Source of the DNA: Escherichia coli | Lineage (GTDB): Bacteria; Pseudomonadota; Gammaproteobacteria; Enterobacterales; Enterobacteriaceae | Assembly: GCF_003334785.1 (NCBI RefSeq) | Contig: NZ_QOWV01000012.1 | Strand: one strand, 5' to 3' | Length of the DNA: 64,000 nucleotides | Shown here: in pieces, positions 35,523-35,780 of the stretch | Layout: every line of letters begins with the position of its first letter | Position numbering within the stretch: the stretch's first letter is position 1 | Made by a program: the position numbers and the translations under genes | The notes under the pieces: generated by a model | Databases searched by the model: none | Seen by the model: the letters and a program-made list of their open reading frames with translations, nothing else | What the model was told of the DNA's origin: nothing

Positions 35523-35780
35523 TTAACGCGGAGAAACCCCGTAATGTGCAATGCAGCGCCAGACACCATCCTGCTGGCAATAAATTGACTCAGTCTGCCC
35601 AGGGATCACCCATTGTATTTCCTCGCCGGGGGGACAGGTCAGCCAAATGCATAACCCGCAGCCGCCGCGTAAATCACGGGGAATATCGCTGACGCGAAAA
35701 GTCATGCCCGCTGCCTGCAACGCCTTGCGGGTTTGTATGACGCCGACCGTGGAGTGAAATAAAAATAAAAACTCTTTCAT
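35523..35780 (-). CDS. small Cys-containing protein (85 aa) translationally coupled to yjiL; DUF3343-like by memory of the motif
   Basis: ATG overlaps the yjiL TGA (ATGA); GAGGA Shine-Dalgarno 7 nt upstream; sequence ...[23 protein letters not shown]... Confidence 0.5.

Follow-up and report, generated by a model that had tools for sequence, protein, structure and literature searches.

Does the small gene that closes the yjiM–yjiL operon of Escherichia coli belong to the iron–sulfur enzyme encoded beside it and, if so, what does its product contribute? We addressed this question on a stretch of 64,000 nucleotides (nt) of E. coli DNA (contig NZ_QOWV01000012.1 of assembly GCF_003334785.1, hereafter the window), which at this locus is about 97.7% identical to K-12 and so derives from a different strain. 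The gene, ytiA, occupies positions 35523..35780 of the minus strand, stop codon included, and codes for an 85-residue protein of the DUF3343 (Se_S_carrier) family, as read from the list of open reading frames, Pfam PF11823 and RefSeq. We lean towards the view that YtiA is a working partner of the YjiL–YjiM pair, carrying a chalcogen adduct on its residue Cys41.

A first-pass annotation of the window had described this gene as an unannotated-looking, Cys-containing frame coupled to yjiL, leaving its strand implicit. The signals on which it relied can all be read in the sequence. The ytiA ATG (35780-35778) and the yjiL TGA (35779-35777) overlap in an ATGA on the minus strand (35777..35780), pointing to translational coupling, and a Shine-Dalgarno-like GAGGA (35788..35792, minus strand) lies within the yjiL coding sequence, separated from the ytiA ATG by the 7-nt spacer CACGCCG. 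The predicted protein ends in GVSPR. The gene is, however, not unannotated, and both it and its family assignment are already known from reference annotation: K-12 MG1655 carries it as ytiA (b4715, 'uncharacterized protein YtiA'), with yjiL on one side and yjiK on the other, and the RefSeq E. coli genomes include ytiA under the labels 'DUF3343 domain-containing protein' or 'putative Se/S carrier protein'. The literature matches to the name ytiA refer to the L31 paralogue of B. subtilis and not to the E. coli gene.

Comparative data show that ytiA is a real, conserved gene. The PF11823 profile matches residues 4-59 of YtiA over model positions 2-57 of 69 (E = 4e-13, 49.1 bits), which bears out the earlier suggestion of a DUF3343-like protein; an NCBIfam scan assigned YtiA to no family, the protein being recognised by Pfam only. 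Homologues that all match PF11823 were found in Escherichia, Citrobacter, Klebsiella, Raoultella, Kosakonia, Atlantibacter and Phytobacter, and orthologues of 76-102 residues are kept as far away as Aeromonas. In the alignment the N-terminal part of about 50 residues is almost invariant and the last 25 or so residues are variable. The median pairwise ratio of nonsynonymous to synonymous substitution (dN/dS, Nei-Gojobori) is 0.28 for the whole frame and 0.22 for residues 2-59, and diversity at codon positions 1, 2 and 3 is 0.31, 0.24 and 0.53, an excess at the third position; ytiA is under purifying selection. That ytiA might be a chance open frame that is not translated is hardly credible: direct expression data on ytiA were not found, which leaves room for this view, but the profile match, the low dN/dS with its third-position excess, the retention of the gene from Escherichia to Aeromonas and a confident structure prediction (see below) all speak against it, and the comparative data effectively refute it.

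Within the species, megablast against 5426 complete E. coli genomes located the ytiA region in 5386. Some strains, namely those of the O55:H7/O157:H7 lineage and a few more, match over just the first 211 of the 258 nt of ytiA, and one of them over the first 148. The C-terminal tail of YtiA thus differs in all these strains, where the gene is still annotated as a DUF3343 protein, consistent with weak constraint on residues 60-85.

In order to see how closely ytiA is tied to its neighbours, we scanned for YjiM with one genome per species, which returned 80 loci, and searched these for DUF3343 genes with a clean YtiA profile and a broad curated family profile. ytiA lies directly after yjiL in all 59 gammaproteobacterial loci that reach past yjiL, the one exception, L003, being cut by a contig end. 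These loci come from at least four families (Enterobacteriaceae, Hafnia, Morganella and Aeromonas) and include Kluyvera, Trabulsiella and Cedecea. The overlap between the ytiA start and the yjiL stop is 4 nt in 45 of them, 1 nt in 11, 8 nt in two and 11 nt in one, and a purine-rich Shine-Dalgarno-like tetramer is found at -4 to -18 of ytiA in 47 of the 59. Thus, in the Gammaproteobacteria ytiA is invariably coupled to the YjiM/YjiL reductase pair. One gammaproteobacterial DUF3343 relative also repeats the order reductase, activase, DUF3343. In many Enterobacteriaceae (L011, L020, L025, L027-L029, L032-L035, L041 and others) the ytiA frame is open for 100-200 codons upstream, inside yjiL, so that calling the longest frame yields artefactual ytiA products of 180-295 residues.

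The nature of this pair was judged from profile scores and sequence alignment, by which YjiM is a double-cubane-cluster reductase and YjiL its ATPase reductase. The yjiM gene (36554..37705, minus strand; 383 residues from the RefSeq start) encodes a class II double-cubane-cluster protein (DCCP) according to model NF040772 and an alignment with PDB 6ENO, and yjiL (35777..36544, minus strand; 255 residues from the RefSeq start), which begins 9 nt beyond the yjiM stop, encodes an ATP-dependent [4Fe-4S] reductase or activase of the type that serves DCCP (DCCP-R), according to TIGR00241 and RefSeq. YjiL scores 364 bits on TIGR00241, the model of archerase-type ATPases (cutoff 125), and YjiM scores 529 bits on the NF040772 equivalog 'double-cubane-cluster-containing anaerobic reductase' (cutoff 350). 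The first-pass annotation had tentatively placed the three genes in an uncharacterised radical dehydratase system, a reading that does not hold: on the 2-hydroxyisocaproyl-CoA dehydratase models YjiM is far below the cutoffs (HadC 93.8 bits, cutoff 700; HadB 18.5 bits, cutoff 750), and the locus has a single HGD-D gene and no alpha/beta pair. YjiM aligns with the crystallised DCCP (6ENO) at E = 1.3e-74, with the YjiM cysteines of the aligned stretch (Cys47, 66, 85, 100, 115, 280, 309, 311 and 342) matched to cysteines of that structure. A regular expression of the published 7-Cys spacing has no literal match in YjiM, and the conservation of the cluster cysteines was judged by the 6ENO alignment and NF040772 and not by this expression. 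Jeoung et al. (PMC7317905) had already called YjiM a DCCP, and DCCP with DCCP-R has been described as a two-component system of unknown physiological function (PMC7317905; PMC9351452). A database homologue search with YjiM returned near-identical enterobacterial clusters only and added no diversity.

DUF3343 genes also occur beside more distant members of this enzyme family. A scan of metagenome contigs, its query alignment having the crystallised class-I DCCP as first member, gave 80 loci, with reductases 49-74% identical to that protein, and 17 of these loci contain a DUF3343 reading frame; many of the contigs are short, so that the DUF3343 counts are lower bounds. Twelve of the 17 frames encode proteins of 70-113 residues and abut the reductase (M) or activase (L) gene, in three orders with respect to DUF3343 (D): M-L-D in L113 and L165, M-D-L in L120, L145-147, L150, L152 and L156, and L-M-D in L135, L148 and L153. 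The other five (L097 3701-4444, L100 1826-2380, L106 3825-4376, L108 3868-4422 and L114 3859-4410) encode fusion proteins of 183-247 residues; each comes after a YedE gene, and the reductase lies about 1.4 kb further downstream. The reductase-linked DUF3343 proteins score 4-14 bits in similarity to YtiA, and those linked to TusA, YedE or a desulfurase score 25-40 bits, a split indicating that at least two distant DUF3343 branches are associated with reductases. The first-pass proposal that ytiA encodes a third component of the yjiM–yjiL system thus gains from the invariant synteny, the coupling and this recurrent adjacency, and YtiA may work physically with YjiLM.

Two features of these metagenomic loci deserve a description of their own. 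In the fusion proteins a DUF3343 domain at the N terminus is followed by an extension that contains Cys (GGGCPDVPY...HTLCGYAL), and they match no NCBIfam model; their genes directly follow a YedE gene of the TIGR04112 type and stand ahead of tandem double-cubane reductase genes. In L145-L147, L150, L152 and L156, one of which comes from a human gut metagenome, two double-cubane reductases are found a few kb apart: on one strand a class II gene resembling yjiM (its product scores about 522 bits to YjiM), without its own activase, and on the opposite strand a trio of class-I reductase, DUF3343 and activase.

What YtiA could contribute is suggested by its cysteines. Cys41 (codon 35658..35660, minus strand) is the sole cysteine kept across the whole DUF3343 family, within the motif xPRxLxxxCG; it is invariant in 22 enterobacterial, 59 gammaproteobacterial and 37 distant family sequences, in line with the one highly conserved Cys noted for DUF3343 by Lin et al. 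2015 (PMC5322559). Cys44 (codon 35649-35651, minus strand) forms with it a CGLC (CxxC) pair that is common though not universal, being present in the Enterobacteriaceae and many distant members and replaced by Ala, Gly or Ser in Aeromonas, Morganella and Hafnia. Read-through translation revealed no selenocysteine (TGA) variants of DUF3343 near reductases. An AlphaFold2 model built from a 22-sequence alignment has a predicted local distance difference test score (pLDDT) of 87.5 and a ferredoxin-like fold (beta-alpha-beta-loop-beta-alpha-beta-beta), in which an exposed loop some 10 residues long ends in Cys41.

The best Foldseek matches to this model are PII/GlnK proteins (E ~1e-2, template modelling score ~0.5, 10-16% identity), and the conserved motif D-I-P-R-x-L-R-G-G-C-G forms the loop, between strands 2 and 3, at the position that corresponds to the PII T-loop. 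YtiA could therefore be imagined as a PII-like regulatory subunit that uses this loop to gate either the ATPase YjiL or the entry to YjiM, with no chalcogen involved. We regard this as quite improbable; YtiA resembles PII/GlnB in fold only and has no Pfam or NCBIfam PII match.

A role of the cysteine in sulfur or selenium handling is suggested by the genomic company of the family, although the carrier role is itself a prediction for all of its members. DUF3343 was proposed to be an Se/S chaperone by Lin et al. 2015, and the STRING table for Slackia in that paper includes, without comment, activase and HgdB-like genes among the DUF3343 partners (PMC5322559). The duf3343 gene is among those most often overlapping selD (preprint 10.1101/2022.04.13.486033), and 955 of 970 double-cubane proteins are found in SelD-containing genomes according to Haft and Gwadz (preprint 10.1101/2022.07.06.499078), who do not mention DUF3343; our literature search found no paper stating a DUF3343–DCCP link. 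In our metagenomic set a YedE gene is present in eight of the 80 class-I loci. Against TIGR04112, 'YedE family putative selenium transporter' (cutoff 200), two of these YedE proteins reached 478 and 485 bits, and the other six were called by similarity to these two. Locus L165 (1137-8388 of contig Ga0208373_1002409) encodes ThiS, a MoeB/ThiF-like E1, a JAMM desampylase-like protein, a sulfite-reductase-like protein, a TusA/YedF-like protein, a YeiH-like transporter, DCCP, its activase and DUF3343, so that a sulfur-carrier activation system stands immediately beside the DCCP system. Other arrangements of DUF3343 genes are TusA with DUF3343 and Aminotran_5, a YedE-type transporter with TusA and DUF3343, and TusA/DsrE with DUF3343. 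The neighbours of ytiA in E. coli are yjiM, yjiL, yjiK, yjiJ and yjiN, and the Se/S gene neighbourhood of DUF3343 is not seen there; this neighbourhood is a tendency of the family and not a strict criterion.

These contexts could also be explained if YtiA were a general S/Se trafficking protein that merely shares the yjiLM transcript, serves (for instance) SelD, tRNA thiolation or YedE/YedF, and has no specific role with the reductase. Its closest DUF3343 relatives outside the Gammaproteobacteria do sit with YedE, TusA or Aminotran_5 and not with reductases, and there is no second DUF3343 gene within the 64-kb window, so that ytiA may be the general copy of the cell. However, none of the 59 loci has lost the overlap of the ytiA start with the yjiL stop, and distant DUF3343 subclades independently adjoin distant reductases in shuffled gene orders, which makes a purely general carrier unlikely.

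We favour instead the view of YtiA as a dedicated partner of YjiLM. The partnership, in the Gammaproteobacteria and some other lineages, is suggested by the coupled gammaproteobacterial loci together with the DUF3343 genes beside distant reductases, and we infer it with moderate support; the chalcogen chemistry on Cys41 is put forward as a hypothesis. As the last gene of a yjiM-yjiL-ytiA operon, ytiA would be translated by coupling to yjiL, and Cys41 on its exposed loop would hold a chalcogen adduct, either a persulfide or Cys-S-Se. YtiA would offer the adduct to the class II reductase, whose active site is relatively open, or take it up from there. The low-potential electrons would come from YjiL at the expense of ATP, and sulfide or selenide would either go free or pass to an acceptor such as SelD. 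A strongly negative Se(0)/HSe- potential, of about -0.7 V, would make sense of such ATP-energised electrons; no source was found for this value, and we do not use it as evidence. Taken one step further, yjiM-yjiL-ytiA would encode a three-part ATP-driven chalcogen reductase, in which Se(0) or S(0) held by Cys41 is reduced by the double-cubane cluster for SelD and other acceptors; we offer this extension tentatively and consider it doubtful.

Several points weigh against the preferred partnership. The synteny within the Gammaproteobacteria could be mere vertical inheritance. Adjacency of the three genes, kept in all 59 gammaproteobacterial loci, does not extend to those of the Firmicutes: in 21 Firmicute YjiM-orthologue loci with yjiL, no free-standing DUF3343 gene was found within 6 kb, with the broad profile either, and 63 of the 80 class-I loci, many of them on short contigs, also lack a DUF3343 frame. 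The enzyme thus has no strict need of the carrier. The crystallised C. hydrogenoformans enzyme is described as having two components and as active in vitro without such a protein (PMC7317905; PMC9351452), and the reduction of a persulfide has no obvious need for ATP-energised electrons. There is no selD, yedE, yedF or desulfurase gene near the E. coli ytiA locus, and our literature search on E. coli ytiA and b4715 yielded no paper and no expression or interaction data.

The Firmicute YjiM orthologues, from Enterococcus, Vagococcus, Asaccharospora and Acetoanaerobium, are 60-66% identical to YjiM, and no shared neighbour was recognised among their loci (L060-L081). One of them, L062 of Acetoanaerobium pronyense (7995-11870, minus strand), has a hydG-like gene, a 430-residue reading frame and a hydF-like GTPase gene beside the yjiM-yjiL orthologues. 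The 430-residue frame has a DUF3343-like start (E = 2e-7, 'VLVPAPKEYGSVCAIAIRV'), apparently fused to a HydE-like body; the hyd-type assignments were made by eye from sequence motifs.

A fusion of this kind brings up another role for YtiA, that of a maturation or repair factor delivering sulfur, or speculatively selenium, for the mu2-sulfide bridge of the YjiM [8Fe-9S] cluster, with no part in turnover. The adjacency and coupling with the reductase genes would be the same, a single conserved Cys is typical of persulfide relay proteins, DUF3343 genes adjoin Aminotran_5 genes of the cysteine desulfurase type, and in L062 a DUF3343-like domain is joined to a HydE-like maturase near hydG and hydF. 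Haft (10.1101/2022.07.06.499078) names, as no more than a formal possibility, a link between DCCP and SelD through the cofactor itself. Nevertheless, most double-cubane loci have no adjacent DUF3343 gene, and the C. hydrogenoformans enzyme acquired its cluster when made in E. coli (PMC7317905), though this host has ytiA. Equimolar translational coupling would also suit a stoichiometric partner better, which is a weak argument. We therefore consider a maturation role conceivable but rather unlikely, and retain the working partner of YjiLM as our preferred reading.

Comparison with known systems shows in which respects the E. coli operon is distinct. YtiA is like other members of the DUF3343/PF11823 family in its size (80-100 residues), in the single conserved Cys of the xPRxLxxxCG loop and in its RefSeq label, but the published context of the family is YedF/TusA, Sec lyase, selD and YedE, whereas that of YtiA is a double-cubane reductase and its ATPase. 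With the DCCP/DCCP-R system (Jeoung & Dobbek; PDB 6ENO, 7YYL) the operon shares a YjiM above the NF040772 cutoff with matched cysteines and an archerase-type ATPase, YjiM being of 'class II', in which the protein is shorter and the active site more open. Two components are published for that system, whereas the operon of the E. coli type adds a translationally coupled third gene that the accessible DCCP papers do not mention. In the TusA/YedF–YedE and IscS–TusA relays, small single-Cys proteins move sulfur, and putatively selenium, from a source enzyme or transporter to an acceptor, and DUF3343 genes are often adjacent to them; YtiA nevertheless has no sequence relation to these proteins (no NCBIfam match and no CPxP motif), and its predicted fold is arranged otherwise, the Cys being borne by a long loop whose position is PII-like. 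YjiM and YjiL share a superfamily (HGD-D fold, BcrAD/BadFG ATPase) with the 2-hydroxyacyl-CoA dehydratases, the benzoyl-CoA reductases and the activases of both, which likewise inject electrons by means of ATP, but those enzymes have an alpha/beta pair in place of the single YjiM, whose family is described as one of reductases without a known physiological substrate.

On the other side of ytiA, the longest yjiK frame (323 residues, 34598-35569, minus strand) would run 47 nt into the 3' end of ytiA, in a different frame. The yjiK of RefSeq and K-12 is a 286-residue form that starts at 35458, 64 nt past the ytiA stop, and accordingly there is no true overlap of the two genes. A promoter and terminator scan found no convincing terminator in the ytiA–yjiK gap, with nothing above shuffled expectation, so that yjiK may be co-transcribed. 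Elsewhere in the window, the SymR antitoxin RNA (47422-47498, plus strand; Rfam RF01809, 89.5 bits) is the sole Rfam match at gathering level.

The physiological role of the double-cubane enzymes is an open question (PMC9351452), and in our view the value of these findings is in the link that they make between two families, DUF3343 (Lin 2015) and the double-cubane reductases (Haft & Gwadz), each of which has been tied to selenium by comparative genomics alone. The two are coupled in E. coli and adjacent in unrelated lineages, sometimes beside YedE, and the coupling of ytiA to an ATP-driven Fe-S reductase hints that the reductase may handle sulfur or selenium. E. coli thus offers a tractable three-gene operon in which to ask whether the double-cubane substrate is a protein-bound S or Se species. 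If the three-part chalcogen reductase proves true, it would supply the long-missing physiological substrate of the double-cubane enzyme family and would explain the near-restriction of these enzymes to SelD-containing genomes.
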